A DNA stretch of 64,000 bases from Escherichia phage RB16. A model generated the notes under the pieces. The model saw only the letters and a program-made list of their open reading frames with translations. It made no database searches and was not told the origin of the DNA. Made by a program: the position numbers and the translations under genes. Positions 2,278-53,164 of this stretch are shown here, in pieces (positions within the stretch are counted from its first letter, which is position 1; every line of letters starts with the position of its first letter). The stretch lies in the sequence record NC_014467.1; one strand, written 5' to 3'.

Positions 2278-2287
2278 GGAAACCATA

Positions 2288-5636: not shown

Positions 5637-7028
5637 ATGAGTAACAACACAATTAACCACGTAAGCGATGCGTCCGTTTACGTGACTTTTGATCCGGCAG
5701 GTACGCAATGGCCCTCGACTTTCGTCAACGTACAGCAAGCATTAGCCTCTATAGGCCCGTGGGCGCGTACTGATGTTGGTTTGCCTAACGCGGCTCCTGG
5801 TATGCGTGGTATTGCTGCTATTGCTACCGAGGCGATGATTGACGCAGGGACAGACAACGAAACGATCGTTACTCCTGCATTGCTGGCATATCGTTTACAA
5901 AATCCTCATGCGTCACAAACCGTTTGGGGATATACCAAATACGCAACTGATGCGGAAGCGGTTGATGTCGCAAACGATCTGGTTTCATTAACTCCGCGTT
6001 CGATCAATGTGGTTTTCAATACCAGACACGCATCAGAAACCGTGTGGGGTTCTTCTAAACTGTCAACGACAGCACAGGCAACAGCGGGTACTGATGATAC
6101 AACCTCAATGACACCATTGAAGGTAAAACAAGCAATCTCTGCTCTGGTTCCGGTACAATCCAACGCAACAGAAAGCGCGTTCGGTTTGGTTCAGTTGGCT
6201 ACGGTTTCAGAAGTCCGCGCGGGTACTATTCGCGACGGTTTCGCAATTTCACCGTATACGTTTATTCGTCTGAATGCAACAGAAAGCGATCTGGGTATTG
6301 TTCGCCTAGCAAGTCAGGCAGAAGTAAACGCAGGAACTGATGATACCAAAGCCGTTACCCCGTTAAAACTGGCTAACCTTAAAGGCTCCGGTGGTTCTTT
6401 CGGTTTGGTTAAATTATCAACAGAAGTAAACGCAGGGCTGGCTAACACTGCTCTTTCTGCGGGTGCTAACGTAGTACCGAGCAACCGTGACAGCGCTATC
6501 ACTGGTGGTGCATTGTATCAGGGTTCAGTTGCTGCTGCTAATAAATACCAGACACATAGCGATATCGAAGCATCGTTACCGATTGGCTGTATGATGATGG
6601 CTGCATTTAACTCCGATTACGGAAACCTGTGTATTGCCAACGGTCGCGGGATGTATACATACGAATACCCAGAACTGTTTGCACGTATAGGCTATACGTA
6701 TGGCGGTAGTGGTAACATCTTTAATCTTCCTGATATGCGCGGCGTAGTTGCTCGCGGATTTGATGCGGGACGTGGTTTAGACCCAGGTCGTGGATTTGGT
6801 ACATACCAGCATCACGAAGTACAGTCTCATGAGCATCCATTGCAGATGATCTATCAGTCTGGTGGTAACTTACCATCATGGCAGTGTGTTTATGAACTGC
6901 GTACTGCTGAGAAGAATGACCAGAAATTATACTGGCCTGATCCATCACTCAGTAAAGCAATGGCTGTAGGCGGTAACGAAACGCGAATGAAGAACCTTGC
7001 GGTCAACTATGTAATTCGAGTACGATAA
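5637..7028 (+). CDS. gp12: Short tail fibre protein gp12-like
   Basis: 463 aa; repeated tail-fibre motif (A.TD.G..RLA/LAT..EV.AGTDDT) shared with the gp34-like protein in this window; His-rich C-terminal segment HHEVQSHEH; position between gp11 and wac. Confidence 0.7.
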   Translation: MSNNTINHVSDASVYVTFDPAGTQWPSTFVNVQQALASIGPWARTDVGLPNAAPGMRGIAAIATEAMIDAGTDNETIVTPALLAYRLQNPHASQTVWGYTKYATDAEAVDVANDLVSLTPRSINVVFNTRHASETVWGSSKLSTTAQATAGTDDTTSMTPLKVKQAISALVPVQSNATESAFGLVQLATVSEVRAGTIRDGFAISPYTFIRLNATESDLGIVRLASQAEVNAGTDDTKAVTPLKLANLKGSGGSFGLVKLSTEVNAGLANTALSAGANVVPSNRDSAITGGALYQGSVAAANKYQTHSDIEASLPIGCMMMAAFNSDYGNLCIANGRGMYTYEYPELFARIGYTYGGSGNIFNLPDMRGVVARGFDAGRGLDPGRGFGTYQHHEVQSHEHPLQMIYQSGGNLPSWQCVYELRTAEKNDQKLYWPDPSLSKAMAVGGNETRMKNLAVNYVIRVR

Positions 7029-7040
7029 AGGGGTTAATCC

Positions 7041-9329: not shown

Positions 9330-9333
9330 TTTA

Positions 9334-9355
9334 ACAAGGGGCGCAAGCCCCTTTT
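9334..9355 (+). terminator. Hairpin plus T-run after wac
   Basis: aaggggcgcaagcccctttt directly after the wac stop. Confidence 0.55.
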
Positions 9356-9364
9356 GAGGATCAT

Positions 9365-10288
9365 ATGATTACGAACAATCCTGAACAATTGAAGGATGAA
9401 ATTCTTCGTCGTCTGGGCGCACCAATCATCAAAATCGAAATCACACAAGACCAGATTTACGATTGCATTCAACGCGCACTGGATCTGTATGCGGAATATC
9501 ACTACAACGGAACAAACAAAAGTTACATTATCCTTACGTTAGGCGAAGACAACCCGCGAAACGTATTTGATTTGAGTAAAGAACATATTTTCGCGGTTAC
9601 AAAAGTATTGCGTACAAATATCGGTTCATTGGTTTCTATGGACGGTACAGCGGTTTATCCGTGGTTTACTGATTTCCTGATGGGGCTTACTGGTGGTTCT
9701 CTGGGCGGTCGCTGTGCATCAAGCGTGTACGGTATGAATGCATATGGCGCGGATCTGGGGTATTTTACACAGATGATGTCATATCAACGTTCAATGCAAG
9801 AGTTGCTGGCTCCATTACCTGATTACTGGTACAACGACGACACTGGTCAGTTTTGTGTATGGGGTAAAGTCAACAACGGTGATATTATTGTCATTGAAGT
9901 GATGGTAAGATCCTTTGTCGATGTTCCTAGTGCCGTAGGAAGCGTTGCAGGATACGCTACAGCGGGTTCTAACGCAGTAGAAGACCAATCCATAGCCGAC
10001 ATCTACGATAACCCGTATAACGCGGTTGTGGGCGGTGTACGAGCGGGACAGGGTACAACTGTTACTGGTGGAACCTCTGCATATAACAACCGTTGGGTAA
10101 AAGACTACTCAACCGCGCTGGTAAAAGAAATCAACGGGCAAATTCTGGCTAAGTTTCAGGGTATGCAATTGCCTGGTGGTGTTGCTCCAGATGGAACACG
10201 ACTGATTCAGGAAGCGGAAACCAAATTACAAGGATTGCGCGACGAACTGATTTCTATGTCTGACGCAGTTCCTATTATTATGGTGTAG
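9365..10288 (+). CDS. gp13: Neck protein gp13
   Basis: 307 aa against T4 gp13 at 309 aa; synteny between wac and gp14. Confidence 0.7.
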   Translation: MITNNPEQLKDEILRRLGAPIIKIEITQDQIYDCIQRALDLYAEYHYNGTNKSYIILTLGEDNPRNVFDLSKEHIFAVTKVLRTNIGSLVSMDGTAVYPWFTDFLMGLTGGSLGGRCASSVYGMNAYGADLGYFTQMMSYQRSMQELLAPLPDYWYNDDTGQFCVWGKVNNGDIIVIEVMVRSFVDVPSAVGSVAGYATAGSNAVEDQSIADIYDNPYNAVVGGVRAGQGTTVTGGTSAYNNRWVKDYSTALVKEINGQILAKFQGMQLPGGVAPDGTRLIQEAETKLQGLRDELISMSDAVPIIMV

Positions 10289-26406: not shown

Positions 26407-27906
26407 TTAAATTTCTACCTGTTTGATCACGTAGTCGAATCGTTCTTCATTGTAGATCCGCACACGTTCCATAGCATGTTTCATGCCGTAGTTAGTTGCA
26501 CTATATTTATTTTTGGCTGTCTTCGACTTCGCCAGCGTTGCCAGGTTATCGACGATATCCCATACAGTTGCAAGCGCTTTCGAACCATGCTTACGCAACA
26601 CGCGCCCGATCGACTGCTTAACAACAACGGCAGATTTGCAAGGGTGTGCAAAAATGATGTGATGCAGGTTCTTGATTGAAATACCTGTACTCAGTACCCC
26701 GATCGAACCGATTACAATCAAACCCTTTGTTGATTCCGCAATCTTTTTCATTTCGTTGCGGTCGTCAATGTCCGTATCGCCGTTGATCAATACAACGTTG
26801 TCATAAACCTTGCTTAACTTCTCGTACAGCCATTTTCCGTGTTCTTTATACCGGAACATCACGAATGTGTTTTCGTTCTTCTCACGGGCTAATTTAAGCG
26901 CTAATTTTAGAATCCATGCGTTGCGCCGTGTATGGCTTGTAACGTATTTGATTTCAGTCTGGTAGTCTGCACCCTTCAATTTCTTGATCTCTTCTTCTTT
27001 GTACCGAAGGAAGATTGTGTTAATTTTCAGGTTGGTGACTTGTCCATCATCCATCAAACGACGCGTATCAACTGGTTTAAAGACTTTACCGAACGCACCG
27101 ATGTATTGCATCATGTTCGTTTTCCCTTCTTTCAGGGAACCGGATAAACCCAGTTTGAAAATGCACTGATCCATTGTGTCGATAATCTTTTTGATGCTCA
27201 ACCCTGTTGATAGGTGGCATTCATCAACCATCAGGCACATGAACTGCTGGAACCACTCAGCAGGCATTTTAACCGCTGATTGCCAGGTTGAAACATAGAT
27301 TAGCGCGTTGCTGTTCTTAGCAGTACCGGAACGAATACCCAACATTGCCGATTTCGGAAACAGTCGATAGTTTGCGATGTCCTCAATCATTTGGTCAACC
27401 AGCGCCGTAGTTGGAACGATAATCAGCACTTTTCCGCTGTAATGTTCCAGACACCAACGGGAGATAAGACCCTGAATTAGAGATTTACCCGCTGACGTTG
27501 GCAGGTTCAGAACTCCTCGACGGTTTTTGATACCGTGGAATACGGATTCGCGCTGATACCAGTAAGGATCGATCTGTTTGTCACCGTCATAAACTGGATG
27601 CTCGTTAACCCACTTGTCAAAATCTTCTTGCGTGATATCCTCTGTCTCGTGGATCTTCGGATCTACCCAGATTGAATAACCGCGTGATTCTGCGAATTTT
27701 GTTACCAGATAGGCTAACCCATACGGGAGTTTTCCGTTGTAGTCCATCAGGTAAATGTACCCGTTCCATCCACCATATTTGTATTTGGCTTGATACTGAT
27801 AGCCTGGAGGCTGGAATGAAAAATAGTCACGAAGTTCATAGACAATGTTTGCTTCTGCCTGAATCTGTACGTGGCTTGTGTTTAAAAATTTGACTTCAAT
27901 ATCCAC
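26407..27906 (-). CDS. uvsW: UvsW DNA/RNA helicase (SF2)
   Basis: 499 aa; Walker A LPTSAGKS, DECH box; matches T4 UvsW as recalled (ILNLPTSAGKSLIQ, KILIIVPTTAL, GLSGSL.DGKANIMQY.G.FG.IFKPV.T..LM.DGQVT.LKIN.IFLRY, TVWD..D); initiates on GTG. Confidence 0.9.
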   Translation of the reverse strand: MDIEVKFLNTSHVQIQAEANIVYELRDYFSFQPPGYQYQAKYKYGGWNGYIYLMDYNGKLPYGLAYLVTKFAESRGYSIWVDPKIHETEDITQEDFDKWVNEHPVYDGDKQIDPYWYQRESVFHGIKNRRGVLNLPTSAGKSLIQGLISRWCLEHYSGKVLIIVPTTALVDQMIEDIANYRLFPKSAMLGIRSGTAKNSNALIYVSTWQSAVKMPAEWFQQFMCLMVDECHLSTGLSIKKIIDTMDQCIFKLGLSGSLKEGKTNMMQYIGAFGKVFKPVDTRRLMDDGQVTNLKINTIFLRYKEEEIKKLKGADYQTEIKYVTSHTRRNAWILKLALKLAREKNENTFVMFRYKEHGKWLYEKLSKVYDNVVLINGDTDIDDRNEMKKIAESTKGLIVIGSIGVLSTGISIKNLHHIIFAHPCKSAVVVKQSIGRVLRKHGSKALATVWDIVDNLATLAKSKTAKNKYSATNYGMKHAMERVRIYNEERFDYVIKQVEI

Positions 27907-37299: not shown

Positions 37300-37710
37300 A
37301 TGAAAGATTATATTTCAGAAGCAGAAGCGCTTGAAGAAAGCGGTTTTCAAGTCACCATTGACGATGAAGAAGATGGTGGCTATGATGGCGGTGTTATGTG
37401 GGGGCTTAAACGTCCACAACGTAAAACTCCTGTTCAATATTCTGATGGTTCGGTAAGATACGAAACGGTTGTTAAAGAAGTAAACGGGCGCGTCATTACG
37501 TCCGAACGGCAGAAGGACATTAAACAGTTGTATGATGTCGCAAAAGCCGCTAAAGTAGGAACCGAGATTGTTTGTCCGGTGTGCAAAGAGAAACACAAGA
37601 AGACGACCTATCATAAGGTGTTCTGCTCTAATGGCAAAAAATCCAGGAAAGACTGTAAGAGTAAATACTGGAACACGATTCATCCTGAACGTTTGGATCG
37701 TATCTTTTAA
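37300..37710 (+). CDS. Hypothetical protein with C-terminal Cys cluster
   Basis: ATG at 37300 with AAGGAA SD (track start 37231 overlaps the upstream gene); CPVCKEKHKK...CSNGKKSRKDC. Confidence 0.35.
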   Translation: MKDYISEAEALEESGFQVTIDDEEDGGYDGGVMWGLKRPQRKTPVQYSDGSVRYETVVKEVNGRVITSERQKDIKQLYDVAKAAKVGTEIVCPVCKEKHKKTTYHKVFCSNGKKSRKDCKSKYWNTIHPERLDRIF

Positions 37711-37732
37711 TCAAAACGTGGAGTACGTTTAA

Positions 37733-39166
37733 ATGAAAACTTTTAATGAACTGAATAGCATCATCACCTCAACCGATTCCTACAAAGTGTCCCACTGGAT
37801 GCAGTATCCGAAAGGCACTGACGCAGCGATGTTCTATATTGAATCTCGCGGTGGTAAATTTGATGAAGTCGTAACCGCTGGCGTTAACTACGTTGCGCGG
37901 GTTCTCGCTGAACCAATTACCATGAAGCAGGTTGAGTTAGCGCGGGTACTTTACCGTAAACACTTCGGAAAAGAGATCTTTAACTACGAAGGGTGGAAAA
38001 AGATTGCTGAACTGGGTTATACCCCTGTAATTTTCCGTGCGATCCCAGAAGGTACGGTTGTTCCGGTGAAAAATGCCGTTGCGACTGTGTACGCCGAAAA
38101 CGAGTTCTCGTGGCTGGCTGGGTGGCTGGAAACAATGACGATTCGCGGTATCTGGTATCCGTCATCTGTAGCAACGCTATCGCGTGAGTGTAAAAAGGTT
38201 CTGGCACACTACCTTGATATGACTTCTGACCTTACTGGTGAAGCATATAACATCACACTGGGTACACGTCTGCATGATTTTGGGGCGCGGGGCGCGACCT
38301 CTGCTGAATCTGCTGGCATTGGTGGGCTGGCACACCTTTATAACTTCATCGGCACTGATACCGTAGAAGGGATGATTATGGCAATCAGCCTCTTTGCGGA
38401 TTATCAAACACTGTTTGATGAAGTTGAAAACGTAGAAGTGGCTGGGGTTTCCATCCCTGCTCGTGAGCATTCAACTACGATTTCCTACGGTAAAGAAAAC
38501 GAAGACGAAGCATATAAAAACAGCATTGAAATGTTCGGTGATGGGTTCTACGCTTGCGTATACGATTCATGGGACTACAAAGCCGCTGTTGACCGGATCG
38601 ATAGTTATAAAGAGAAAATCATTGCATCTGGCGGTGTGTTGGTAGTGCGTCCAGACTCAGGGGATATGATCGACAACATCATGTACACCTTGCGCAAACT
38701 GGGGCAAATCTTCGGATATACTGTCAACTCCAAAGGGTACAAAGTTCTTCATAACTCTGTTCGTATCATCCAGGGTGACGAGATCCACGGGCCTGAAACA
38801 ATCAACCGTGTATTAAGCTGGATGGAAGCGAACAAATGGTCGAGCGAAAACATTGCGTTCGGTATGGGTGGCGGTTTGCTGCAAGAAGTTACCCGCGATA
38901 CCCAGAAATATGCTGAAAAACTTTGCGCTATCCGTATCAACGGTGTGTGGAAAGGCGTTTACAAATGCCCGAAAGGTTCGGAATGGAAAAAGAGCAAGAA
39001 AGGTTTATTGATGACCATCACTAACGGGATGGAATTCAAGACAATCGATTCTCTCGAAGAATCTATTCCTGTTGGGTGGTTTGATGCGATGGTAACTTAT
39101 TACGACAATGGTTATCTGAACAAAACCAACACTTTAGGGGGAATTCGTGAGCGTAGCCGGATTTAA
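37733..39166 (+). CDS. nadV: Nicotinamide phosphoribosyltransferase (NAMPT / NadV)
   Basis: 477 aa; N-terminal signature TDSYKVSHW and GARGATS...GIGG..H typical of the NAMPT family; this length fits NadV. Confidence 0.85.
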   Translation: MKTFNELNSIITSTDSYKVSHWMQYPKGTDAAMFYIESRGGKFDEVVTAGVNYVARVLAEPITMKQVELARVLYRKHFGKEIFNYEGWKKIAELGYTPVIFRAIPEGTVVPVKNAVATVYAENEFSWLAGWLETMTIRGIWYPSSVATLSRECKKVLAHYLDMTSDLTGEAYNITLGTRLHDFGARGATSAESAGIGGLAHLYNFIGTDTVEGMIMAISLFADYQTLFDEVENVEVAGVSIPAREHSTTISYGKENEDEAYKNSIEMFGDGFYACVYDSWDYKAAVDRIDSYKEKIIASGGVLVVRPDSGDMIDNIMYTLRKLGQIFGYTVNSKGYKVLHNSVRIIQGDEIHGPETINRVLSWMEANKWSSENIAFGMGGGLLQEVTRDTQKYAEKLCAIRINGVWKGVYKCPKGSEWKKSKKGLLMTITNGMEFKTIDSLEESIPVGWFDAMVTYYDNGYLNKTNTLGGIRERSRI

Positions 39167-40615: not shown

Positions 40616-41695
40616 ATGCAAGATTACGGACACTGGAAAACTCTAAAGGATGTTGACATTAGTAATTACTTGGGATTTGTCTACGTAATTACATTTGAAA
40701 ATGGTAAAAAATACGTGGGGGCTAAAAAGATATGGAAACGTATAAAAGTTCCTCCATCTTCGTTTAAGCGCGGCCCCCGAAAGGGTTTTGAAGAATCGGA
40801 CTGGAAAACGTATACATCATCATCGAAAGAAGTTAATGATATGATTTCCAGTGGAATACAACCTAAAGATTATTTGATTGTTGGTTGGTATGATTCATGG
40901 GGTAAAACTTTGTTAGCAGAGGCTGAAATGCAATTCTCTAACGATGTTCTCCGAAATCCTGAATGGTTGAACAAGCAAATCGGTGGTCATTTTAATCCTA
41001 ACTGTTTTGATGATTTGACTTATGAAGACATCGAAAGGTACATGCATTTCGATAAAGGGAATGAACACACATCGTGGCCCGTAATGTATCGAGTTGGTAG
41101 TAAAACGAAATATGTTAACCCTGATGAAGTAGAATCACATTTACAGCAAGGTTGGCAGTTCGGAAGAAGTAGATTAGAAAAGTTGTCTGTTGTCTGTGTT
41201 GTTAGCAAATATAAACTTTATAATACAAAAACTGATGAAGTTGTTGAAGTTGTTAATCAAAATGAATTTGCGCGACAGCATAATATAGAATCGGGACACT
41301 TGACAAATTTGTTGAAAGGTTCTACTGATAGTGTGGGTGATTGGACATTATTGCCAGAAGTCAGAAGAAAGAACTATGTCATCGAAGATGATAAAGGTAA
41401 TAAATTCTCGTCTGTGTCTGAATGTGAAAGAGCTAATGGATTGAAACGAGGTGCTGCTACTTCTCTATGTAAAAAAGGGATCTATAAGAAAATGGTTCCT
41501 GAATCCAGGACTCTTTATAAGAAACGGTTATCAACTATTAACTATGTTGAATCTTGTCGTGTTGAATCTGTTTCTAAGATAACAGAAAACAGTTTTCGTG
41601 GTCTTGTTCCAGATCTTGCTGTATTGCATGATTCGAAAGAATCTGTTATTCTGTGGCTTGAACAATACATATCCTATCTAAAGGCAATGAAATGA
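40616..41695 (+). CDS. GIY-YIG homing endonuclease (seg-like) inserted between nrdC and nrdD
   Basis: 359 aa; N-terminal GFVYVITFENGKKYVGAKK (GIY-YIG); long C-terminal region consistent with DNA-binding modules; ATGA overlap with nrdD. Confidence 0.7.
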   Translation: MQDYGHWKTLKDVDISNYLGFVYVITFENGKKYVGAKKIWKRIKVPPSSFKRGPRKGFEESDWKTYTSSSKEVNDMISSGIQPKDYLIVGWYDSWGKTLLAEAEMQFSNDVLRNPEWLNKQIGGHFNPNCFDDLTYEDIERYMHFDKGNEHTSWPVMYRVGSKTKYVNPDEVESHLQQGWQFGRSRLEKLSVVCVVSKYKLYNTKTDEVVEVVNQNEFARQHNIESGHLTNLLKGSTDSVGDWTLLPEVRRKNYVIEDDKGNKFSSVSECERANGLKRGAATSLCKKGIYKKMVPESRTLYKKRLSTINYVESCRVESVSKITENSFRGLVPDLAVLHDSKESVILWLEQYISYLKAMK

Positions 41696-43821
41696 AAGTA
41701 GAAAAACGCGACGGCAAAACCGTTGATTTTGATAAAGAAAAAATCCGTATTGCTGTAGAAAAAGCTGGCGGAACTATGACGGATGCTGATGCCGCAATCA
41801 TGCTGGTTCAGTACAATCAGATCCGCGATGGTAGCGCAATGAAGATCGCCCGTATCCAGGAACTCGTTGAAGAATCCCTGATGAAAACGAACCCAGCGGT
41901 CGCCCGTGCATACATCGAATATCGCCACGATCGCGATATTGCCCGTGAACAGAAAAGTAAGCTGTTCAAAGATATCTCCGGCATGGTGAATCTGTCCAAC
42001 AAAGAGATCACCAACGAGAACGCAAACAAAGACGCACGGGTATTCCCTACACAGCGTGATTTGCTGGCGGGTATTGTAGCGAAGCATTTCGCCCGTAATC
42101 ATATCCTTCCGAAACATATCGTAGAAGCGCATGACTCCGGCGACATCCATTATCACGATCTGGACTATAGCCCGTTCACCCCTTACACTAACTGCTGTCT
42201 GGTTGACCTGAAAGGTATGCTTGAGAACGGTTTCAAGATGGGTAACGCGGACATTGAACCGCCTAAATCGATCGGTGTTGCTACCGCTCTCATGGCGCAG
42301 ATCACCGCACAGATTGCCTCTCACCAGTACGGCGGGACAACCTTTGCGAACGTTGATAAAGTGCTGGCTCCATACGTAGAAATGACATTCTTCAAACATC
42401 TGCGCGATGCTGAACATTATGGTATCGAACACTATAACGATTATGTGTATGCAATCGAGAAGACCGAAAAAGATGTATTCGATGCGTTCCAGTCCTATGA
42501 GTATGAAGTGAATACCCTGCATACTGCCAACGGGCAAACCCCGTTTGTTACCATCACTTTCGGTACTGGTACAAGCGACTATGAACGCATGATCCAGAAA
42601 GCGATTCTGAAAAATCGTATTCGCGGCCTGGGTAAAGAGGGTATCACTCCGGTATTCCCTAAACTGGTTATGTTCATGGAAAAAGGAATCAACCTTGATC
42701 CAGAGGATCAGAACTATGACATCAAACAACTTGCCCTTGAATGTGCTTCGAAACGCATGTACCCAGATATCATTAGTTCAGCTAATAACCGCGCTATTAC
42801 TGGTTCTAGCGTTCCTGTATCTCCTATGGGTTGTCGCAGTTTCCTTAGCGTGTGGCATGATGATAACGGTAATGAAATTCTGGATGGACGTAATAATCTG
42901 GGTGTGGTGACAATCAACCTCCCACGTATTGCGATCGAAGCCGAAGCACAGGAAGAAGAAGACGCACACGATGCATTTTGGCGTATCCTTGATGAACGTC
43001 TGGATCTTTGTTACGATGCTCTGATGACTCGTATCGAAAGCCTACGCGGTGTTAAAGCCAGTGTAGCCCCGATCCTGTACACAGAAGGTGCGTTTGGTGT
43101 ACGCCTGAAACCGGATGATGAAATTCTGGAACTGTTCAAAAATGGGCGTAGTTCTATCAGTCTGGGCTATATCGGGCTGCATGAAACGCTGTTGATGTTT
43201 GGCTCCGGTCAACATCCATTCGATCGCGTTGGCTCCCAGAACTTCGGTAAACACGTTCTGGAACACCTGAAAAACAAAACTGAACGCTGGAAAGCCGAAA
43301 CTGGGTATGGATTCAGTCTGTATTCAACCCCAGCGGAATCTCTCTGCCATCGCTTCTGTAAGCTGGACTTTGAGAAGTTCGGAAGCATCAAAGGGGTCAC
43401 GGATAAAGGCTGGTATACAAACAGTTTCCATCTGGACGTTGACCGCAAGGTAACACCGTTCGAGAAAATCGACTATGAAGCCGATTATCATTACATCGCT
43501 ACTGCTGGTCATATCAGTTATGTTGAATTCCCTGATATGAAAAACAACCTGCAAGCCCTGGAAAAAGTCTGGGATTATGCGATGGATAAACTGGACTATT
43601 TCGGGACTAACCTTCCGGTCGATAAGTGCTTTGTATGTGGCTCTGATGACGAGTTCACGCCTACAGAAGACGGTTTCCACTGCAAACACTGCGGTAATCA
43701 CGATCCGGCTAAAATGAGCGTCACGCGCCGTACATGCGGTTATCTGGGTGCTCCTGCTGTTCGTGGATTCAACGAAGGTAAGAACAAAGAAATGATGCAC
43801 CGAACTAAGCATCAAAATTAA
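41692..43821 (+). CDS. nrdD: Anaerobic ribonucleoside-triphosphate reductase NrdD (class III)
   Basis: 709 aa; C-terminal Cys cluster C.VCG....C..CG and glycyl-radical motif RRTCGYLG; reads as one continuous ORF with no visible intron. Confidence 0.9.
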   Translation: MKVEKRDGKTVDFDKEKIRIAVEKAGGTMTDADAAIMLVQYNQIRDGSAMKIARIQELVEESLMKTNPAVARAYIEYRHDRDIAREQKSKLFKDISGMVNLSNKEITNENANKDARVFPTQRDLLAGIVAKHFARNHILPKHIVEAHDSGDIHYHDLDYSPFTPYTNCCLVDLKGMLENGFKMGNADIEPPKSIGVATALMAQITAQIASHQYGGTTFANVDKVLAPYVEMTFFKHLRDAEHYGIEHYNDYVYAIEKTEKDVFDAFQSYEYEVNTLHTANGQTPFVTITFGTGTSDYERMIQKAILKNRIRGLGKEGITPVFPKLVMFMEKGINLDPEDQNYDIKQLALECASKRMYPDIISSANNRAITGSSVPVSPMGCRSFLSVWHDDNGNEILDGRNNLGVVTINLPRIAIEAEAQEEEDAHDAFWRILDERLDLCYDALMTRIESLRGVKASVAPILYTEGAFGVRLKPDDEILELFKNGRSSISLGYIGLHETLLMFGSGQHPFDRVGSQNFGKHVLEHLKNKTERWKAETGYGFSLYSTPAESLCHRFCKLDFEKFGSIKGVTDKGWYTNSFHLDVDRKVTPFEKIDYEADYHYIATAGHISYVEFPDMKNNLQALEKVWDYAMDKLDYFGTNLPVDKCFVCGSDDEFTPTEDGFHCKHCGNHDPAKMSVTRRTCGYLGAPAVRGFNEGKNKEMMHRTKHQN

Positions 43822-45156: not shown

Positions 45157-45648
45157 ATGAACTTTGACCGCATCTACAACATGGATATGGTCAACGGTAA
45201 AGGAATCCGTGTAGTGTTGTTTGTCACTGGCTGCAATCATAAATGCGAAGGTTGCTATAACCGTAGTACATGGAATCCCCGCAACGGTACACCATACACC
45301 GAAGAGACTGAAAACGAGTTGATTAAACTCCTTTCAAATCCCCATGTGGACGGGTTGACGCTTACAGGCGGCGATCCGTTTTACCGCACCAATCATCCGA
45401 AGCTCTTAAAACTGCTCCAGCGCGTCCGTGCGACGTTCCCTGATAAAGATGTGTGGGTTTGGACGGGTTACACCCTCGAAGCCTTACAGGGCGATACAGA
45501 ACGCTCTAAGCTGCTACCATTCATAGATGTTCTGATCGATGGACGGTACGAAAAGGATCTACCGACTAAGAAACCGTTTCGCGGTTCGGATAATCAGCGA
45601 ATGATTGAGTTCAAAAAGAATTCGATAGAAATTAAAAATATCGCTTGA
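45157..45648 (+). CDS. nrdG: Anaerobic ribonucleotide reductase activating protein NrdG (radical SAM)
   Basis: 163 aa; radical-SAM cluster motif CNHKCEGCYN; GLTLTGGDP. Confidence 0.85.
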   Translation: MNFDRIYNMDMVNGKGIRVVLFVTGCNHKCEGCYNRSTWNPRNGTPYTEETENELIKLLSNPHVDGLTLTGGDPFYRTNHPKLLKLLQRVRATFPDKDVWVWTGYTLEALQGDTERSKLLPFIDVLIDGRYEKDLPTKKPFRGSDNQRMIEFKKNSIEIKNIA

Positions 45649-45672
45649 CCTGGTTTGTGGTTCTGTTAAGAT
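45645..45672 (+). promoter_or_regulatory. Sigma70-like early promoter (TTGACC-N16-TAAGAT)
   Basis: Hexamers at 45645-45650 and 45667-45672 upstream of the 45714 start. Confidence 0.35.
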
Positions 45673-45713
45673 ATCCACGTAGCATAAATTTAACCCAATT
45701 GAGAGATAATATC

Positions 45714-46664
45714 ATGATCCTGAATTTCAAAACCCGTAAAGAAGCCCGTGACTATTGCTGGAAGTGGTCGATCCCGCTGAAAAACATCACCAAAGGAAGC
45801 GGTTCACATCCGTGGACGGTGAGAACCAAAGAAACCCGCTTCGAAACTGGTAAAGATTACAAGCTGGTTGATGTCGAAGGTTTCACTGACAACGGCAAAA
45901 ACATTGCGAACAGTGTTCAATCAAAACAGATCCACCAATTGCTGAACGGTGTTGTAAACATCGCAAGCCGTAACGGTGATCGCTACACCTTCAATGCTCC
46001 GGCAGGTGTTGCTATGAACACCCTTCGTGCATGGGAAGCGAAATACTTCACAGAAGTTGCTCCGGCTAAAGCCCCAGCGCCAAAACGCGCTAAAAAACCA
46101 AAACCAGTAGGCAAACCGTCCGCTGCTCCTGTACCAGCTAAACCGGATCTGGATTCCGAACTTGACGGCGGCGTTAACCTCGCTCAGACAATCGAACCAG
46201 TTGCAAAACCTGCTGCACCACAGCCAGCAACGGTTGAAGCGATGCCTGGTAACTTTGTTGCAAACCGTCCGTATGTTCTGGTAGATGAAGCTGGTTTCCT
46301 GCGCTCGCACACTGCAAACAAACGCATTGTGCAACACATCAAAAACAACAACGGCGTTCTGGTGTTTGTTACTGTTGACGGCGACGGTGACGCAACTATA
46401 TCACAAGATCGTAGCCTCCCGTTTGTAATACATCGTGAGCGTAAGTTCTTCCGTGAACTCGGTACTGGCACAGTTCAGGCAGATACCCCAGCGGTTCAGA
46501 CCGTTGATATTGCCAAACAGCAACGCGACAAAGAGATCATCGAAGCTGCACAGGCAGTAGAAGACGCACTGGCAGAACACCAGAAAGCGATCGAAGTTGT
46601 CACACAGAAAGCTCGCGCAGTTCGCGAAGCCGCTGCAAAACTTGCACTACTGGCAAGTAAGTAA
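45714..46664 (+). CDS. Hypothetical protein with Ala/Pro/Lys-rich central linker
   Basis: ATG at 45714 (MILNFKTRK) downstream of the promoter-like element; low-complexity APAKAPAPKRAKKPKP segment. Confidence 0.4.
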   Translation: MILNFKTRKEARDYCWKWSIPLKNITKGSGSHPWTVRTKETRFETGKDYKLVDVEGFTDNGKNIANSVQSKQIHQLLNGVVNIASRNGDRYTFNAPAGVAMNTLRAWEAKYFTEVAPAKAPAPKRAKKPKPVGKPSAAPVPAKPDLDSELDGGVNLAQTIEPVAKPAAPQPATVEAMPGNFVANRPYVLVDEAGFLRSHTANKRIVQHIKNNNGVLVFVTVDGDGDATISQDRSLPFVIHRERKFFRELGTGTVQADTPAVQTVDIAKQQRDKEIIEAAQAVEDALAEHQKAIEVVTQKARAVREAAAKLALLASK

Positions 46665-46673
46665 TATAATTCG

Positions 46674-46702
46674 GGGGTGCTTGTGAGCATCCCCTTTTTT
46701 AT
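46674..46702 (+). terminator. Rho-independent terminator
   Basis: gggggtgcttgtgagcatcccctttttt. Confidence 0.6.
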
Positions 46703-46713
46703 TTGAGGTAATT

Positions 46714-47448
46714 ATGGAATTATTCGCTGGAAAAACTTACGGTTTAACCGTATCCCCTGAAATCTTTGCAGAGAAAACCTGGAAAACAGGTATCGCAAAC
46801 ATCATTCGTGAAAAAGGTTATGTGACGATTGATCGTACCTCGATCGGTGAGTTCGAAGACCGCGCATTTATCATGGACGGTGGCTACGAATATGAACTCC
46901 CTGCATCATTATGGAAATGGTTCAAGGAAGTAACGCCGGAAGATGGTGAATTCACCCCAGAAGAACCAGAAGAAGTTAATCTGGGTAAAGGTGTAGAGGC
47001 TGAAAACGTTATGCGTATTGCTACGCCGGAAGAGGTTTCCGCTGGTGTTGCCGGATCGGATCTGCGTCTGATGGAGATCCCTAAATTCACGTATCGCCCT
47101 GTACAGGAAAATCCTATGCGCGATCTCCGCATCGATCCATCATTCGGGGCTAACCTGGAAACGTTGAGCATCGCACCGATGCCAGTACGTAAATCTGATG
47201 CAATGCTTCGTTTCGCCTTGCAACATGTTTTCAGTGGTGGTAGCATCTATCAAATCAACATGGAATCAGAACTGAATATACAGGAAGACCAGATCGCAAA
47301 TCTGTTCGATTTGCATACACAGTTAACCGCTGTTGAGAATATCGAAAAACTGTTAGGCAAAGAGAAAAAGCGAATTTTGCAGGATCTCAAACCATACGGG
47401 AAGAAGAATGAAAGTCGAAATATACGGAATCCCCGAAAGTCTTCATAA
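46714..47448 (+). CDS. Hypothetical protein
   Basis: 244 aa ORF; 3' end overlaps the next gene. Confidence 0.4.
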   Translation: MELFAGKTYGLTVSPEIFAEKTWKTGIANIIREKGYVTIDRTSIGEFEDRAFIMDGGYEYELPASLWKWFKEVTPEDGEFTPEEPEEVNLGKGVEAENVMRIATPEEVSAGVAGSDLRLMEIPKFTYRPVQENPMRDLRIDPSFGANLETLSIAPMPVRKSDAMLRFALQHVFSGGSIYQINMESELNIQEDQIANLFDLHTQLTAVENIEKLLGKEKKRILQDLKPYGKKNESRNIRNPRKSS

Positions 47449-47686
47449 CTGTTACGGGTGTATACAAGCACAAAAGCTGTTGACAGAAAAAGGGATAGAA
47501 TATACATTTTATCCCGTTCTGAAAGAAGCGAAAAACGATCTGGGCTTTGAATACGATCGCCCACGTATCGAAGAGTTAGCAAAACGGGTAAGGCAACGTA
47601 GTTTAGCGTTTCAATACCCGCGTATTTTTGTCGATAACAAACTTATCGGCGGTTATCTGCAACTGAAACAACTTATTGGTGATTAA
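47408..47686 (+). CDS. Glutaredoxin-like protein (paralog of NrdC architecture)
   Basis: 92 aa; MKVEIYGIP...NCYGC... with CxxC at the same position as NrdC and a C-terminal P.IF.DN..IGGY.QL. Confidence 0.5.
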   Translation: MKVEIYGIPESLHNCYGCIQAQKLLTEKGIEYTFYPVLKEAKNDLGFEYDRPRIEELAKRVRQRSLAFQYPRIFVDNKLIGGYLQLKQLIGD

Positions 47687-48025
47687 ATGAGCCGTGAAAT
47701 TTTACTCCCTGCTGCAAATGCTGTTCATGCTGAAACGATGGAATATATGGAGAAATTTGTTGAACGTGATAAAACCGCGATCATCACTCCTACTCACCTG
47801 GACGCGCTCGAAGATCGTCTTCACAAGCAGATTAAAGATCAATTCCCTGAAAAGGTTAGCCGCAACTTCATTCGTCAGGAAATCGTTGCAATGATTCTGA
47901 AACATTACGGCGTTGAAATCTTCGGTGTAGAACCACTGAAACCGAAGAAACCGCGTCAAATGCCAACACAGATCACCGACGAAGCAATCAAGAAATACCA
48001 GAAGAAATACGCTAAGAATAAATGA
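47687..48025 (+). CDS. Hypothetical protein
   Basis: 112 aa ORF; ATGA coupling with the downstream gene. Confidence 0.3.
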   Translation: MSREILLPAANAVHAETMEYMEKFVERDKTAIITPTHLDALEDRLHKQIKDQFPEKVSRNFIRQEIVAMILKHYGVEIFGVEPLKPKKPRQMPTQITDEAIKKYQKKYAKNK

Positions 48026-49449
48026 TCTTTAATACGATTGAATGTGTTCCGTCAAGTGGTAAAACAAAGGCGATTCTGAACCATATCAATCAAACGGGCG
48101 AAAAAGCAATCATCGCTTCGATTTCCATGATGTTATCAAAACAGTCTTATGACTATTACATCAACCAGGTAAAAGGGAAACGAGCGGTGATTGTGGACAC
48201 GGATCACCGAACCAAAAGAACCAATAACGATGCGCTGCGTGAAGTAGTCAATGATTACGATGTGATTTTCATCACTCATGCAGCACTGAAAAACATTGAT
48301 GACTTTGATTTGTATAAGGATTTTTCCCTGTACATTGACGAAGTTCCTGATTTGGTTGCGTTCGAAAGTCTGCGATTTAATAGCAATATCAAGCACATAC
48401 GCGAGATTTGCTTGCCGTTTAGTTGCAATGCCGATGATATCGTTGATTTAAAACTTGACGAAGAAAAACGAGAACTGGTTACACGATTAGCCTATGATGG
48501 GCTTCGTAAACGTGATGATATCGCAATGAAGATGTTCCCGCTTTACCGCGCTCTGTTAGGGGCTATTCCGGTGAAGATGCAATGTAGCGATTCGGGATAT
48601 GTCTGTTACTTCGTAGAGGATCATGACGTAAGCCAGTGGAAGTTCAAAAATGTAACCATTGCTTCATCCAACATCAAAGACACGATTACGGGCAAGATCC
48701 TGAAAACGTTTCATGATGTGGAGTTCGAAGAATCACCGCTCCAAAAGCTGGTTGATTTTAAGCAATACAAAAACACGGGACGCATACATATACATGTGCT
48801 CGCAGAGGGGGATTATTCGCGTTATACGGGCGATCTCTCTCAATCTGGGACGACAGTATACACCCAGATTAAAAAACGCGTGGAGGCGCTTCTAGGGGGC
48901 GAACAGTTCATCTACTGCACCAACACGTATCGATCGAAGTTTAGCGAGGGACAAGAAATCCCGTATAACTCGCACGGATTGAACTTCTATTCAAGTTATA
49001 CTAACGTGGTAGCATTATTCAGTTACAACCCGTTACCCTGGCTTCGTCAAATGTTGCGAGCGGTTGCGGTGTCCTCTGGACTCGAAGAGGAAGAATTAGT
49101 TGATGCCTATGTTGTCAGTAAATATTACGAACCAGCCTTTCAGTTATGCGCTCGTTCTGATATCCGACACAACAACAGCAAAAGAAAGATTAATTTATTT
49201 GTGCCTGATATGCGGTTAGCGAAATACATGAAGGAAAAATATTTTCCTGATGCCATTATCGAAACCACAGAAGCAGTTCAAACGAAAAGGCAACGCAAAT
49301 CATTTCAGTCTCTTTTCCAGATGACAGCACAAGAAATTAATGCTTTCAACTGGTACAAGAAGAAACATAAACTTGATTTTGCAGATCCTCTTCATCACGC
49401 GATTGTTAAAGATTGGTTGAACAATTACCGTGAGAAAAAGGCGACTTGA
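48022..49449 (+). CDS. P-loop NTPase of unknown function
   Basis: 475 aa; Walker A-like VPSSGKTKA near the N-terminus and Walker B-like LYIDEVPD; no further family assignment possible by eye. Confidence 0.4.
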   Translation: MIFNTIECVPSSGKTKAILNHINQTGEKAIIASISMMLSKQSYDYYINQVKGKRAVIVDTDHRTKRTNNDALREVVNDYDVIFITHAALKNIDDFDLYKDFSLYIDEVPDLVAFESLRFNSNIKHIREICLPFSCNADDIVDLKLDEEKRELVTRLAYDGLRKRDDIAMKMFPLYRALLGAIPVKMQCSDSGYVCYFVEDHDVSQWKFKNVTIASSNIKDTITGKILKTFHDVEFEESPLQKLVDFKQYKNTGRIHIHVLAEGDYSRYTGDLSQSGTTVYTQIKKRVEALLGGEQFIYCTNTYRSKFSEGQEIPYNSHGLNFYSSYTNVVALFSYNPLPWLRQMLRAVAVSSGLEEEELVDAYVVSKYYEPAFQLCARSDIRHNNSKRKINLFVPDMRLAKYMKEKYFPDAIIETTEAVQTKRQRKSFQSLFQMTAQEINAFNWYKKKHKLDFADPLHHAIVKDWLNNYREKKAT

Positions 49450-49462
49450 GGTCGCCTTTTTT
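49440..49462 (+). terminator. Rho-independent terminator overlapping the stop codon
   Basis: ggcgacttgaggtcgcctttttt. Confidence 0.65.
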
Positions 49463-49465
49463 GTT

Positions 49466-49473
49466 TATAAATA
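49466..49473 (+). promoter_or_regulatory. T4-type late promoter TATAAATA upstream of gp34
   Basis: Exact TATAAATA about 32 nt before the gp34 start. Confidence 0.6.
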
Positions 49474-49504: not shown

Positions 49505-52500
49505 ATGGTAGCTAAATCATTCCGCGCCACAAGTGGCCTTGATGCTGCTGGCGAAAAAGTTATCAACGTTGGTAAAGCATCCCGCTCTGTGTTGAGCGAC
49601 GGCGTGAACGTTGACTTTTTTAACGAATTTAACACGATCCAACAATACGATTCTACCCGTGGTTATGCTGCGTTTATGGCTATCATGTACGCGCGTCGTA
49701 TTTGGTACGCTCGCGCAGATATTCCATCACCAGCGGGTGCTTTCGATGAAACAAAATGGATCTCAACCCGTAACGATCCAAAATGGGTATATAACAACGT
49801 AACCAGCGCTGACGGTCTCCCTATTGAGTCCGGCACGTACTTAATGGCTGATGGTCGTTTCTCTGAACTGACCTATATTCTGCCAGATTCCCCTGTTGAG
49901 GGTGATATTATCACCATTAAAGACGGTGGCGGTCTTGCAGGTGTAAACAACCTGTTGGTTCGTTCAAACACCCGACAGATCCGTTTGCGTGATATTCAGT
50001 CAAGCTCTTATCGTCTGACTCACCCATACATGACCGTAGCGTTTATCTTTAACGGTAACTTATGGCGTGTTGCTGAAATGCGTGATAACCGCGATTCGCA
50101 GTTTGTGAACGCAACAGGCGCGGGTTCTTTCCAACTACAAGCGGGTATGACAACGTTTCGTAATAGCGGTACTGGTAAAATCACTCTTCAATTGCCGAAA
50201 TATGCAAACGATGGTGACTCTATCACTACCTACGATCTCGATAAACTCAGTTCGGTAAACGTTGCAACTTTACAGGTATATCCTGGTAGCGGTCACACTA
50301 TCACTTATGATAGCATTAACGGCGTAACCTCTGTTGCTTCACAGCGTTCAGGTTATGGTGTGTTTATCTTTGATCAGACTAACAACCGCTGGGTTGTCTA
50401 TGATGGGGATAACCGCGTTCGTCTGCGTCGTATCAGTGACGACCTGAACATGCTCCCGAATGATTATGTTTTCGTTACTCCTATTGCTGGGAACCCTCCT
50501 ACAGTACGTAACGTAACATTAACCCTCCCGCAAGATGTTGCAGAAGGGGATCGCGTGTACATCAGTATGTACATGATGGGTAAAACGCAGAACTGTACGA
50601 TCAAGGTTAAAGATGGTTCCGGTGAAACGATCCGCACCAACAAAAACATGATGCAGTTCCCACAGCGTAAGGATTATCCGCCTAATGATTGGTTCAGTGT
50701 TGACACTCTGACTTTCAACGCCGATACTGACTACCTTCCATACATGGAATTGTCGTATCTGAAAGCTACGAAAGAATGGGTAGTTGCACAATATCGCCCA
50801 ATCATTGAACGTGTCGATCCAACAAACCGTTCTCGTCTGGGTGTGATCGCGCTGGCTACACAAGCAGAAGTAAACAAAAACTTGGAAGATTTACCGTCTG
50901 ATGAACTGGCAGTAACCCCGCGCACACTGGCGAATAAAACCGCTACTGAAACGCGTCGTGGTATTGCTCGACTCGCAACGACAGCAGAAGTTAACCAGAA
51001 CACAACGGCTACTTTCTTGGATGACGTAATCGTAACGCCTAAAAAGCTAAACGAACGTACAGCAACGGAAGATCGTCGCGGTGTGCTGGAAATCGCAACC
51101 CAGGCAGAAACAAACGCGGGTACTGATGACACTACCGCAATAACGCCTAAGAAGCTCGATACGCGTCGTGCAAGCGAAACCTTAGCAGGTATCGGAAAAC
51201 TTGTCACAACGGGTGCTACGACAGCGGAGGGGGCTTTACGTGGGGATGCAGGGACTAACGTCTACAACTTCAACAACGGTGTTGATCTGATCACTCCTAA
51301 ATCGTTGAACGAGAAGACGGCGACCGAAAAATCGAAAGGTTTAGTTGTTCTGGCAACGGAAAACGAAGTTATTACGGGCGCTGCTGCTGGATCTGCTACC
51401 ATGCCGATCGTAGTCACTCCCGAAATGCTTCACCGTAAGACAGCAACAGAAACGCGTATCGGTTTGATTGAAATTGCAACTCAGGCAGAAACGAACACGG
51501 GAACCGATGATTTACGGGCGGTTACTCCGAAGAAACTGAATGATCGCAAAGCAACAGAAGCCCTTGATGGTATTATCGCGCTGGCAAGCACTTCCGAAAT
51601 TGCAGCAGGGACAGTAACCAATAAAGCGGTTGTTCCGGTGAAACTGAAAGAGTTCTTCGATGTTACTGGACATATTGCGGTTGCAACTGATGATGGTTTG
51701 ACTCAATCCGGTACTATCTGGACAACGGTTAACCTGGGGATTGCGTCTGCTACTGAAACACAGCGCGGTACTTTACGTGTTGCGACTCAGGGTGAAACTG
51801 ATGCGGGTACTCTGGATACCGTGTTCATTACGCCTAAAAAACTGCAAGCGAAGAAAGCGACGGATACCGCCGAAGGTATTATTCGTTGTGCGACTAACGC
51901 GGAAGCGGGTGCGGGTACTGCTACTAACTTGGCAATTACTCCGGCTACCATGCAGTTCTTGAACGGTACTGATCCGGCTTGGGGTGCTACAACATTGCGC
52001 CGTGGTGCGGTGTTTATCACTACCAAATCGAATACGTTCATCGGTGATAATCTGGTTGGTTCTACTCAGCCTGTAGATAGCTATCTGGAAGATTTCTACG
52101 CTGTATCGCCTCGCGGTCTGAACTTTGCTCTGCAAAACTTCTTACCGAAAATGGCAACAGCACAGAATAGCTTGAGTCTGGGCGGTGTGGTAGCTGCAAG
52201 CTGGATGCGTCGTGATGCGGATCAAACCGTAACGGGCAACAACACGTTCAACGGTACAAGCAACTTTGTTGGTAATGTAACAACTAACGGGACTCTGACG
52301 GCTAACGCTGCGGTAACTGTTAACAACACCGTAACAACAAACAATAACATTAACCAGTCTGCGAAAGCAAACACGGTTTATGCTAATACTGTTTTGAGTA
52401 CGGCAACCGCTGGAACTAAAAACTTGCTTCGTACCTTCCGTGGCGGTGTGACGGATACTACCTGGCATGAAACTGTTCAGGCAAGCGTGTATCGACTGGC

Positions 52501-53164
52501 AACAGGTACAACGGATCTGGTTGATGTTCTGACTGTAGGTGATATCAGTAACGGTGCTCTGGCGTACTACGGTACGAACATTCGCCTGAATGGTAAAGCC
52601 CTGGCTAACATCAACACTGCTGGTGATCTGTTTGTTGCAAGTGATGCGACTCCTACGGTACAATTACGAACCGCTGCAACTAACGGTTGGAACGGTGTAA
52701 CAATCAGTAACGATAACGGGACAACCACTGCAACCGTGATCAACACCCGAAACTTTACCCAGCATCTTGACAGTACCTATGTCAATACAGCGGGTGATAC
52801 TATGACTGGTGCGCTGTCAGTTAGCGTAAACGGCACGGGTGGACGCTTTACCAGTGTGAGCGGTACGGCACATGTTCAGGCGGGTGATTTCTCTGGTAAC
52901 GTCCAGAAGATGCGCTTAACTGGCATTGACGATAAGGTATTGACTGAATTCAATATCAATATCACCGATTACAACAAAGCGATGATCAACGGAAACCTGA
53001 TCTATCATGCAGGTCGTAAACCAACTCCGGCAGAAATTGGGGCGGTTGCGGTTGCGGGTTCAACTGTAGATACTCTGGTTGTTCGTGATTACATCAAAAT
53101 CGGAAACGTAAAAATCTTCGCAAATCCAACAACTAAGACTTGTGAATTTGTGTGGGAGGAATAA
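49505..53164 (+). CDS. gp34: Long tail fibre proximal subunit gp34
   Basis: 1219 aa; matches T4 gp34 as recalled (RLGVIALATQA, TATETRRGIARLATTAEVNQNT, TPKKLNERTATE, ATQAETNAGTDDTT, C-terminal IRDY..IGNV.I). T4 gp34 is 1289 aa. Confidence 0.9.
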   Translation: MVAKSFRATSGLDAAGEKVINVGKASRSVLSDGVNVDFFNEFNTIQQYDSTRGYAAFMAIMYARRIWYARADIPSPAGAFDETKWISTRNDPKWVYNNVTSADGLPIESGTYLMADGRFSELTYILPDSPVEGDIITIKDGGGLAGVNNLLVRSNTRQIRLRDIQSSSYRLTHPYMTVAFIFNGNLWRVAEMRDNRDSQFVNATGAGSFQLQAGMTTFRNSGTGKITLQLPKYANDGDSITTYDLDKLSSVNVATLQVYPGSGHTITYDSINGVTSVASQRSGYGVFIFDQTNNRWVVYDGDNRVRLRRISDDLNMLPNDYVFVTPIAGNPPTVRNVTLTLPQDVAEGDRVYISMYMMGKTQNCTIKVKDGSGETIRTNKNMMQFPQRKDYPPNDWFSVDTLTFNADTDYLPYMELSYLKATKEWVVAQYRPIIERVDPTNRSRLGVIALATQAEVNKNLEDLPSDELAVTPRTLANKTATETRRGIARLATTAEVNQNTTATFLDDVIVTPKKLNERTATEDRRGVLEIATQAETNAGTDDTTAITPKKLDTRRASETLAGIGKLVTTGATTAEGALRGDAGTNVYNFNNGVDLITPKSLNEKTATEKSKGLVVLATENEVITGAAAGSATMPIVVTPEMLHRKTATETRIGLIEIATQAETNTGTDDLRAVTPKKLNDRKATEALDGIIALASTSEIAAGTVTNKAVVPVKLKEFFDVTGHIAVATDDGLTQSGTIWTTVNLGIASATETQRGTLRVATQGETDAGTLDTVFITPKKLQAKKATDTAEGIIRCATNAEAGAGTATNLAITPATMQFLNGTDPAWGATTLRRGAVFITTKSNTFIGDNLVGSTQPVDSYLEDFYAVSPRGLNFALQNFLPKMATAQNSLSLGGVVAASWMRRDADQTVTGNNTFNGTSNFVGNVTTNGTLTANAAVTVNNTVTTNNNINQSAKANTVYANTVLSTATAGTKNLLRTFRGGVTDTTWHETVQASVYRLATGTTDLVDVLTVGDISNGALAYYGTNIRLNGKALANINTAGDLFVASDATPTVQLRTAATNGWNGVTISNDNGTTTATVINTRNFTQHLDSTYVNTAGDTMTGALSVSVNGTGGRFTSVSGTAHVQAGDFSGNVQKMRLTGIDDKVLTEFNINITDYNKAMINGNLIYHAGRKPTPAEIGAVAVAGSTVDTLVVRDYIKIGNVKIFANPTTKTCEFVWEE

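Follow-up and report, generated by a model that had tools for sequence, protein, structure and literature searches.

A putative SF2 helicase of DinG-like build encoded ahead of the long tail fibre genes of Escherichia phage RB16

In a window of 64,000 nucleotides from Escherichia phage RB16 (sequence record NC_014467.1; positions are those of the window unless another record is named), we examined the gene at 48022-49449 on the plus strand, which encodes the 475-residue protein RB16p255 (ADJ55559.1; 100% identity). We conclude with high confidence that RB16p255 is a helicase-type ATPase of superfamily 2 (SF2), and we propose that it is an ATP-driven nucleic-acid helicase or translocase with two RecA-like domains. 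The narrower assignment, to a DNA helicase like DinG and XPD, we would give roughly an even chance. The overall build of the protein appears closest to that of the XPD/Rad3/DinG helicases, most of all to their iron-sulfur-free members. Because the sequence signatures of XPD/DinG fail, however, we describe a separate family of SF2 that is built like DinG and not a demonstrable XPD/DinG member; it is a new, uncharacterised family within a well-known helicase superfamily. The protein would be made before the late genes of the phage.

ATPase motifs and the family that carries them

The original prediction, drawn from the letters alone, had described a 475-residue reading frame carrying VPSSGKT and YIDEVPD, and had called the product a P-loop NTPase of unknown function that resembled no helicase. 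The open reading frame (ORF) is confirmed, with an ATG start, and the gene is real; VPSSGKT lies at residues 9-15 and the second motif, as LYIDEVPD, at 103-110. The NTPase assignment is likewise borne out, invariant residues being found in both Walker A (VPSSGKT) and Walker B (LYIDEVPD), and it is also true that the protein has no experimentally known function. The statement that it resembles no helicase was wrong: a two-RecA SF2 fold, an invariant motif VI and matches of relatives to the Pfam families DEAD and ResIII all speak for a helicase.

The motif evidence comes from two alignments, one of the family itself (28 sequences, the close members) and one of 67 distant homologues at ~20% identity. 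In the latter, K14, D106, E107, G319, N321, Q374, R378 and R382 are invariant, a set that makes up the ATP site of a motor with two RecA domains. Because K14, D106 and E107 do not vary in 67 sequences at this level of identity, the Walker motifs are not chance matches. In the close alignment, the conserved blocks can be read as SF2 motifs, namely PxxGKT (I), IASxSxxLSxQS (Ia), VIFITHxAL (Ib), LYIDEVP (II), TIAxAN, FIYTxNSYR, YNPHGLN, FSYNPxPW and FQLCxRxDIR (VI). The corresponding motifs of the second RecA-like domain in RB16p255 are FIYCTNTYRS (IV-like), YNSHGLN (V-like), ALFSYNPLPW (Va-like) and FQLCARSDIR (VI). We take FIYTxNSYR, HGLN and FSYNPxPW to resemble motifs IV, V and Va of XPD, a likeness that serves as a lead and not as a test. 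RB16p255 has features of SF2: a Walker A motif, a Walker B motif of the DExx type, and a second RecA-like domain with the glutamine and arginine finger(s) of motif VI. The ATP site would lie between the RecA domains and be formed by K14 of Walker A, D106/E107 of Walker B and Q374/R378/R382 of motif VI, the last three residues being candidate arginine fingers.

The family is large and has no Pfam model. Homologues form 93 clusters at 90% identity and occur in 240 phage records; the phage genomes concerned are T4-like almost throughout, although T4 itself lacks the gene. More widely, homologues form 1697 clusters at 50% identity (E <= 1e-3), 1084 of them at E <= 1e-10, and include a second size class of ~770-890 residues with an unannotated C-terminal extension. 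The RB16 DNA is ~97% identical to Pseudotevenvirus genomes such as those of Cronobacter phage GAP161 and Klebsiella phage phi1_146002. On its own, the RB16p255 sequence gave nothing usable against Pfam, NCBIfam, PADLOC or the sequences of the PDB, reaching no threshold; it matches PHROG 2467 ("unknown function") at 6e-193. Its relatives are more informative. Pfam DEAD (PF00270) is matched by 12 of the 28 close and 42 of the 67 distant members, and ResIII (PF04851) by 23 of the 67, several of these matches exceeding the gathering cut-off (in the homologue P0116, 39.1 bits for DEAD and 31.1 bits for ResIII).

Existing annotation of the gene is uneven. Almost everywhere it is labelled "hypothetical," in one Krischvirus it is a "putative helicase," and the UniRef label on 97%-identical proteins is "DEAD/DEAH box helicase domain-containing protein." The orthologue in RB49 has been listed with a marginal DEAD match, E 0.069 (Nolan et al. 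2006, PMC1524935). In several Klebsiella phage records of 2024, orthologous coding sequences, such as that at 37578-39005 of PP889458.1 (6623-8050 of our locus L001) and those of sister records, are called "DNA primase," a label that lacks domain support and may spread through annotation transfer.

Predicted fold and competing assignments

An AlphaFold2 model, built without templates on the close alignment, is of good confidence: its predicted local distance difference test (pLDDT) score is 88.9 and its predicted template modelling (TM) score 0.79. In it, residues 1-110 and ~206-245 form RecA domain 1, interrupted by an insertion at 111-205; RecA domain 2 spans ~250-420, and a tail occupies 421-475. 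The original prediction had proposed a Foldseek comparison of such a model as a check; as an independent method, Foldseek puts XPD, S. aureus DinG, T. acidophilum XPD and CasDinG at the head of its list (E values from 1e-9 to 1e-6, TM 0.37-0.50). By two methods, XPD/DinG proteins are the top structural neighbours of the model and have the closest overall fold. In the model, the insertion occupies the topological position of the Arch domain of XPD/DinG. When the insertion was modelled by itself, 78-88 of 101 residues could be aligned with DinG/XPD; these were the longest alignments listed, but their Z scores were low. SF1 helicases and PhoH had been named beforehand as well-characterised families to which the protein might turn out to belong. 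It does fall within a known superfamily, SF2, but it is neither SF1 nor PhoH, neither a profile match nor the closest fold of RB16p255 lying with them, and its own family is uncharacterised.

Several observations weigh against a DinG/XPD-like helicase made before the late genes. First, none of the 95 close and distant members matches Pfam DEAD_2 (PF06733) or Helicase_C_2 (PF13307), at cut-offs of E <= 0.1 for the 28 close and 0.001 for the 67 distant members. Second, no 4Fe-4S cluster domain, with four cysteines between motifs Ia and II, was found: the only conserved cysteines are C130 and C376 (26 of 28 sequences), with none between residues 42 and 103, and because motifs Ia and II have no conserved cysteines between them we conclude that RB16p255 has no iron-sulfur cluster. 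Third, when the family profiles were aligned with E. coli DinG and YoaA by hhalign, only ~40 residues around the P-loop aligned, with scores no better than those for RhlE, the UvsW homologue of the window or T4 Dda; these three, too, were matched in the P-loop region only, and all scores were weak. Fourth, by sequence the N-terminal domain is most like those of DEAD-box RNA helicases. Finally, the proposed timing of expression rests on gene order, and promoter scans of the window found sigma-70-like sites to be no commoner than chance.

Other assignments within and beyond SF2 have to be weighed. RB16p255 could be a translocase or remodeller of double-stranded DNA like Snf2, HsdR or RapA; it would then strip proteins from DNA or counter a host defence and would not separate strands. 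The ResIII matches among relatives are consistent with this, as is the occurrence of bacterial homologues in islands with defence cargo. The Snf2 neighbours of the model, however, align over ~250 residues, which amounts to the two RecA cores, versus 308-348 for XPD/DinG, and neither Snf2-specific protrusions nor a SNF2 Pfam match is present. A link to defence systems finds little echo in PADLOC, where the phage protein is unmatched and distant homologues give only weak N-terminal matches. Three of these homologues match models of type IV CRISPR DinG, with E values between 1e-6 and 2e-4 that stay below threshold, alongside equally weak matches to Cas3, PbeA, PriA and RecG. We consider such a translocase unlikely.

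The affinity of the N-terminal domain raises the possibility of a DEAD-box-like RNA helicase or ribonucleoprotein remodeller whose target would be RNA of the phage or its host; mRNA processing, translation and the degradosome are examples of where it might act. DEAD and ResIII are the sole Pfam families that relatives match; the best match of the family profile among PDB sequences is the DEAD-box helicase 2z0m, at E 0.29 in an alignment that takes in motifs I, Ia, Ib and II; and the profile of distant homologues aligns with RhlE at an hhalign probability of 81%. But the features that define DEAD-box proteins are missing. The 8 residues ahead of the P-loop leave no room for a Q-motif in RB16p255. 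Its motif II reads DEVP instead of DEAD, and in place of a SAT motif III it has TIASSN, ~105 residues after motif II. Helicase_C (PF00271) is matched by none of the 95 members, and an insertion of 95 residues separating motifs II and III is foreign to the DEAD-box family. An RNA helicase thus seems rather improbable.

A further alternative comes from the C-terminal tail and the bacterial relatives. The tail is basic and helical, and within it, linking the helicase core to the two long helices, is a conserved basic peptide, KRxSFxxLFxM (49285-49323, residues 422-434), where model confidence dips; it has the look of a short docking motif, whose partner may be a clamp or an SSB-type protein. The tail may be a DNA- or partner-binding module. 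A few distant members have C-terminal helix-turn-helix-like (HTH-like) segments, and in the homologue P0164 a sub-threshold HTH lies at the position of the tail. In addition, three Pseudomonas homologues, P0093, P0238 and P0236, are always encoded at an island edge, where their genes come immediately behind that of a DUF6538 tyrosine integrase. One could thus suppose that RB16p255 is a domesticated mobile-element protein, whose relatives serve island excision, replication or transfer and whose phage version does something similar, such as site-specific initiation or processing of replication through its tail. Yet only three closely related island contexts were compared, and the relationship is distant. 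No domain for sequence-specific binding to DNA could be detected in RB16p255, and the phage slot is stable and vertically inherited, with no integrase nearby. We judge this origin quite improbable. Among the three Pseudomonas proteins only P0093 aligns with RB16p255 over its full length (24% identity). Their loci lie at 6405-9584 (contig L005), 6319-9464 (L008) and 1781-4995 (L010), in islands inserted beside an EI24-family gene and carrying as cargo Kiwa KwaAB, an Eco29kI restriction-modification system with Vsr, or a PAAR-Ntox44 toxin; they may represent an undescribed integrase-helicase island backbone. Nothing was found in the literature on DUF6538 or phrog_2467.

A DNA primase, the product named in PP889458, PP889464 and PP889466, can be set aside almost entirely, being refuted at the level of domain content: Pfam, NCBIfam and PHROG searches found no Toprim, zinc-ribbon, AEP or PrimPol domain, PHROG 2467 itself is of "unknown function," and the two-RecA helicase fold with insertion and tail accounts for the whole chain.

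Operon structure and genomic slot

The helicase gene follows genes for the glutaredoxin NrdH and for a homologue of T4 gp55.2 (33% identity, E 2e-12; DUF7570, PF24454, at 1.4e-29), and its ATG overlaps the stop codon of the latter (ATGA, 48022-48025). The gene string, 46714-49449, comes after a terminator at 46673-46694, and between 46694 and 49440 the only terminator candidate on the plus strand is one weak 5-bp hairpin inside the helicase gene. Because of the ATGA overlap and the lack of a convincing internal terminator, we place the helicase at the end of a multi-gene unit, as its final cistron, probably coupled in translation to the 55.2 homologue and, as judged from gene order, belonging to a putative pre-late operon. 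The original prediction of a separate transcription unit therefore holds only in part: the gene stands apart from the late tail-fibre operon, but it is the last cistron after the 55.2 homologue. The best sigma-70-like match nearby, TTGACA-17-TACATT (10/12; 47480-47508, plus strand, inside nrdH), could drive 55.2 and the helicase, although such matches are no commoner than in shuffled sequence.

At the 3' end, the strong terminator said to precede the gene 34 late promoter is indeed present (Table 1). Its stem pairs GGCGACT (49440-49446) with GGTCGCC (49450-49456), followed by the T-run at 49457-49462, and it folds with a free energy of -17.1 kcal/mol (z = -4.2), matched by none of 200 shuffles. 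A simple terminator scanner did not detect this hairpin, probably because an upstream A-run pairs with the T-run. A terminator is annotated at the corresponding site in the Citrobacter phage CfP1 record, and terminator and late promoter are both conserved in close relatives. The stop codon of the helicase, TGA at 49447-49449, is itself the hairpin loop, whose length differs by one nucleotide among close relatives (TTGA-G versus TTGATG). The promoter motif, TATAAATA, occurs 9 times in the window against 2.7 expected, at 16374, 17023, 17536, 19820, 20470, 22954, 29657, 49466 and 56999; all copies are on the plus strand, consistent with unidirectional late gene blocks. RB16p255 would thus be made before the late genes as the last product of the nrdH-55.2-helicase string, and the terminator would insulate it from the late tail-fibre operon.

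Table 1. Features of the helicase gene and its surroundings (close alignment, 28 sequences; distant alignment, 67 sequences)
Feature	Position	Strand	Details
Coding sequence, SF2 helicase-type ATPase (predicted), PHROG 2467	48022..49449	+	475 aa, RB16p255
Motif I / Walker A, VPSSGKT	48046..48066	+	Residues 9-15; P10, G13, K14, T15 invariant in close alignment; K14 invariant in distant alignment
Motif Ia-like, IIASISMMLSKQS	48109..48147	+	Residues 30-42; aligns with motif Ia of DEAD-box helicase 2z0m
Motif Ib-like, VIFITHAAL	48262..48288	+	Residues 81-89; V81, I84, T85, H86, L89 invariant in close alignment
Motif II / Walker B, LYIDEVPD	48328..48351	+	Residues 103-110, DExx box; D106, E107 invariant in distant alignment
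Insertion, ~95 aa	48352..48636	+	Residues 111-205, between motifs II and III; beta-alpha-beta-alpha-alpha-beta-beta
Motif III-like, VTIASSN	48652..48672	+	Residues 211-217, on strand re-entering RecA domain 1; A216 nearly invariant in distant alignment
Second RecA-like domain	48769..49281	+	~Residues 250-420; boundaries approximate, from model
Motif VI, FQLCARSDIRH	49138..49170	+	Residues 373-383; Q374, R378, R382 invariant in distant alignment
Basic C-terminal tail	49282..49446	+	Residues 421-475; isoelectric point 10.1; two long helices
Intrinsic terminator	49440..49462	+	7-bp G+C-rich stem, TGA loop, T6 run; by fold energy
T4-type late promoter for gene 34, TATAAATA	49466..49473	+	By motif; 32 nt before gene 34 ATG
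Gene 34, long tail fibre proximal subunit	49505..53164	+	Downstream neighbour, outside the helicase unit
T4 gp55.2 homologue (DUF7570)	47687..48025	+	Upstream gene; stop overlaps helicase start
nrdH, glutaredoxin	47408..47686	+	Same gene string; abuts 55.2 homologue

Outside RB16-type genomes the gene has a characteristic slot. The order nrdD-nrdG-nrdH-55.2-[helicase]-55-47-46 is found in RB49, Proteus PM2, Aeh1 and Aeromonas phage 65, and 44RR and Erwinia IT22 keep the order from nrdD to 55 with additional small ORFs in between (positions of 55.2 in the compared phages were checked by tblastn). It corresponds to the pre-late nrdD-55 cluster of T4, in which the genes are ordered alike but the 87-aa ORFan 55.1 stands between 55.2 and 55. 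Gene 55.1 shares the slot of the helicase but encodes an unrelated small protein and has no homologue in the window, such that the exchange is a positional replacement only. Genes 55, 55.1 and rnh were not found in the window, which fits the unique topology of RB16/RB43 genomes (Petrov et al. 2010, PMC2993671); a rearrangement breakpoint directly after the helicase appears to have moved it beside gene 34 in genomes of this type. It had been noted at the outset that T4 has rnh at this position. The T4 rnh gene does lie next to 34, but on the opposite strand; it is unrelated and not the syntenic counterpart. A view of the helicase as the positional equivalent of rnh was accordingly rejected, T4 rnh being divergent from gene 34 and the true slot that of 55.1.

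Several other features upstream of the gene string deserve mention. Directly upstream of nrdD lies a SegE-like GIY-YIG homing endonuclease gene (359 aa; PF19835, E 4e-34; 40616-41695, plus strand), where GAP161 has the gp49 endonuclease VII, in agreement with the report that RB16 lacks gene 49 (PMC2993671). An ORF at 45645-46664 (plus strand, 316-339 aa) has no Pfam match and shows an apparent internal duplication (...GKDYKLVDVEGF... and ...NRPYVLVDEAGF...), with an Ala/Pro/Lys-rich linker between the copies, a coiled-coil-like, Ala-rich tail, and the strong terminator at 46673-46694 after it. A 351-aa ORF with a TTG start, antisense to nrdD (41674-42729, minus strand), is almost certainly spurious.

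Likely role and comparison with known helicases

For RB16p255, DNA as substrate, polarity and biological role are all drawn by analogy with its structural neighbours. By this analogy the protein would track along single-stranded DNA, probably 5'->3', and could assist, as an accessory helicase, when phage DNA is replicated, recombined or repaired; the removal of R-loops, D-loops or proteins bound to the DNA would be examples. We do not take it for the replicative helicase, although gene 41 was not searched for: the window encodes a UvsW homologue (~26407-27906, minus strand), several lineages with the family also possess Dda homologues (an Aeromonas phage, a Krischvirus and Cronobacter phage S13), and T4 manages without the gene. 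The first two of these facts also led us to reject proposals that the helicase replaces UvsW or Dda. Presumably phages can do without it to the point that the T-even lineage lost it. Another candidate association, that the gene marks phages without hydroxymethyl-cytosine, was discarded, since Erwinia phage IT22 (Tevenvirinae) has both the helicase and an alpha-glucosyltransferase.

DinG-type helicases remove R-loops. For RB16p255 in particular, we think a role at R-loops unlikely. A much broader proposal would see in RB16p255 the founding phage member of an unnamed clade of XPD/DinG-like helicases, large (>1000 clusters at 50% identity) and iron-sulfur-free, which would be ancestral to the Straboviridae and lost in T-evens; RB16p255 would work with gp55.2. 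The latter, an R-loop-promoting inhibitor of host topoisomerase I, increases plasmid replication that depends on R-loops (PMC4396842), and a functional link is attractive for this reason. The pair would then create and afterward resolve or exploit R-loops on phage DNA, for example in origin firing or at replication-transcription conflicts, and in Pseudomonas the relatives next to integrases would turn this activity to the replication or mobilisation of defence islands. The adjacency of the two genes is confined to the Straboviridae, however, and no 55.2-like gene was found near the homologues of Pseudoalteromonas phage HM1, Agrobacterium phage Atu_ph07 or the Pseudomonas islands. Moreover, inherited synteny explains the adjacency, because T4 keeps 55.2 in place without the helicase. 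Functional coupling to 55.2 was thus dropped as a deduction from gene order, shared ancestry being sufficient, and the combined proposal seems to us very unlikely.

The practical consequence of an SF2, DinG/XPD-like assignment is that "hypothetical protein," and the mistaken primase label, could be replaced by a helicase annotation in ~240 phage genomes. Such an annotation is useful, would not surprise a specialist and does not overturn current understanding. Because the gene is absent from T4 it has never been studied, and the classical genetics of T4 replication did not touch it. A literature search for DinG/XPD in T4-like phages yielded none, returning only work on plant mitochondrial DNA repair.

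Among known systems, the XPD/Rad3/DinG helicases (S. acidocaldarius XPD, 3crv; E. coli DinG, 6fwr) likewise have a two-RecA core whose first domain is interrupted by an accessory domain after motif II and before motif III, and a motif VI of the Q...R...R type. In contrast to them, RB16p255 has neither a 4Fe-4S domain nor a cysteine cluster, nor matches to DEAD_2 or Helicase_C_2; it is much smaller (475 residues versus 550-760); and its insertion is half the size of the Arch domain and, searched alone, shows no significant similarity. Two helicases of the XPD type, CasDinG and S. aureus DinG, function although they lack an iron-sulfur cluster, and in this respect the closest comparison is with the iron-sulfur-free DinG relatives, namely CasDinG/Csf4 of type IV CRISPR (8s35, 8e2w, 7xf0), S. 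aureus DinG (8zef) and Finegoldia DinG (9kqh). No CRISPR or exonuclease genes surround the phage gene, however. The DEAD and ResIII families, the only ones that relatives match by sequence, share alignable motifs I, Ia, Ib and II; RB16p255 differs from DEAD-box proteins in lacking the Q-motif, the SAT motif III and Helicase_C and in having a large insertion after motif II. Finally, T4-like phages already possess two accessory, non-replicative helicases, UvsW (SF2, a 3'->5' branch and R-loop helicase) and Dda (SF1B, 5'->3'). RB16p255 is proposed to act in the same capacity and, if so, would be a third accessory helicase type in the T4-like toolkit, beside these two.

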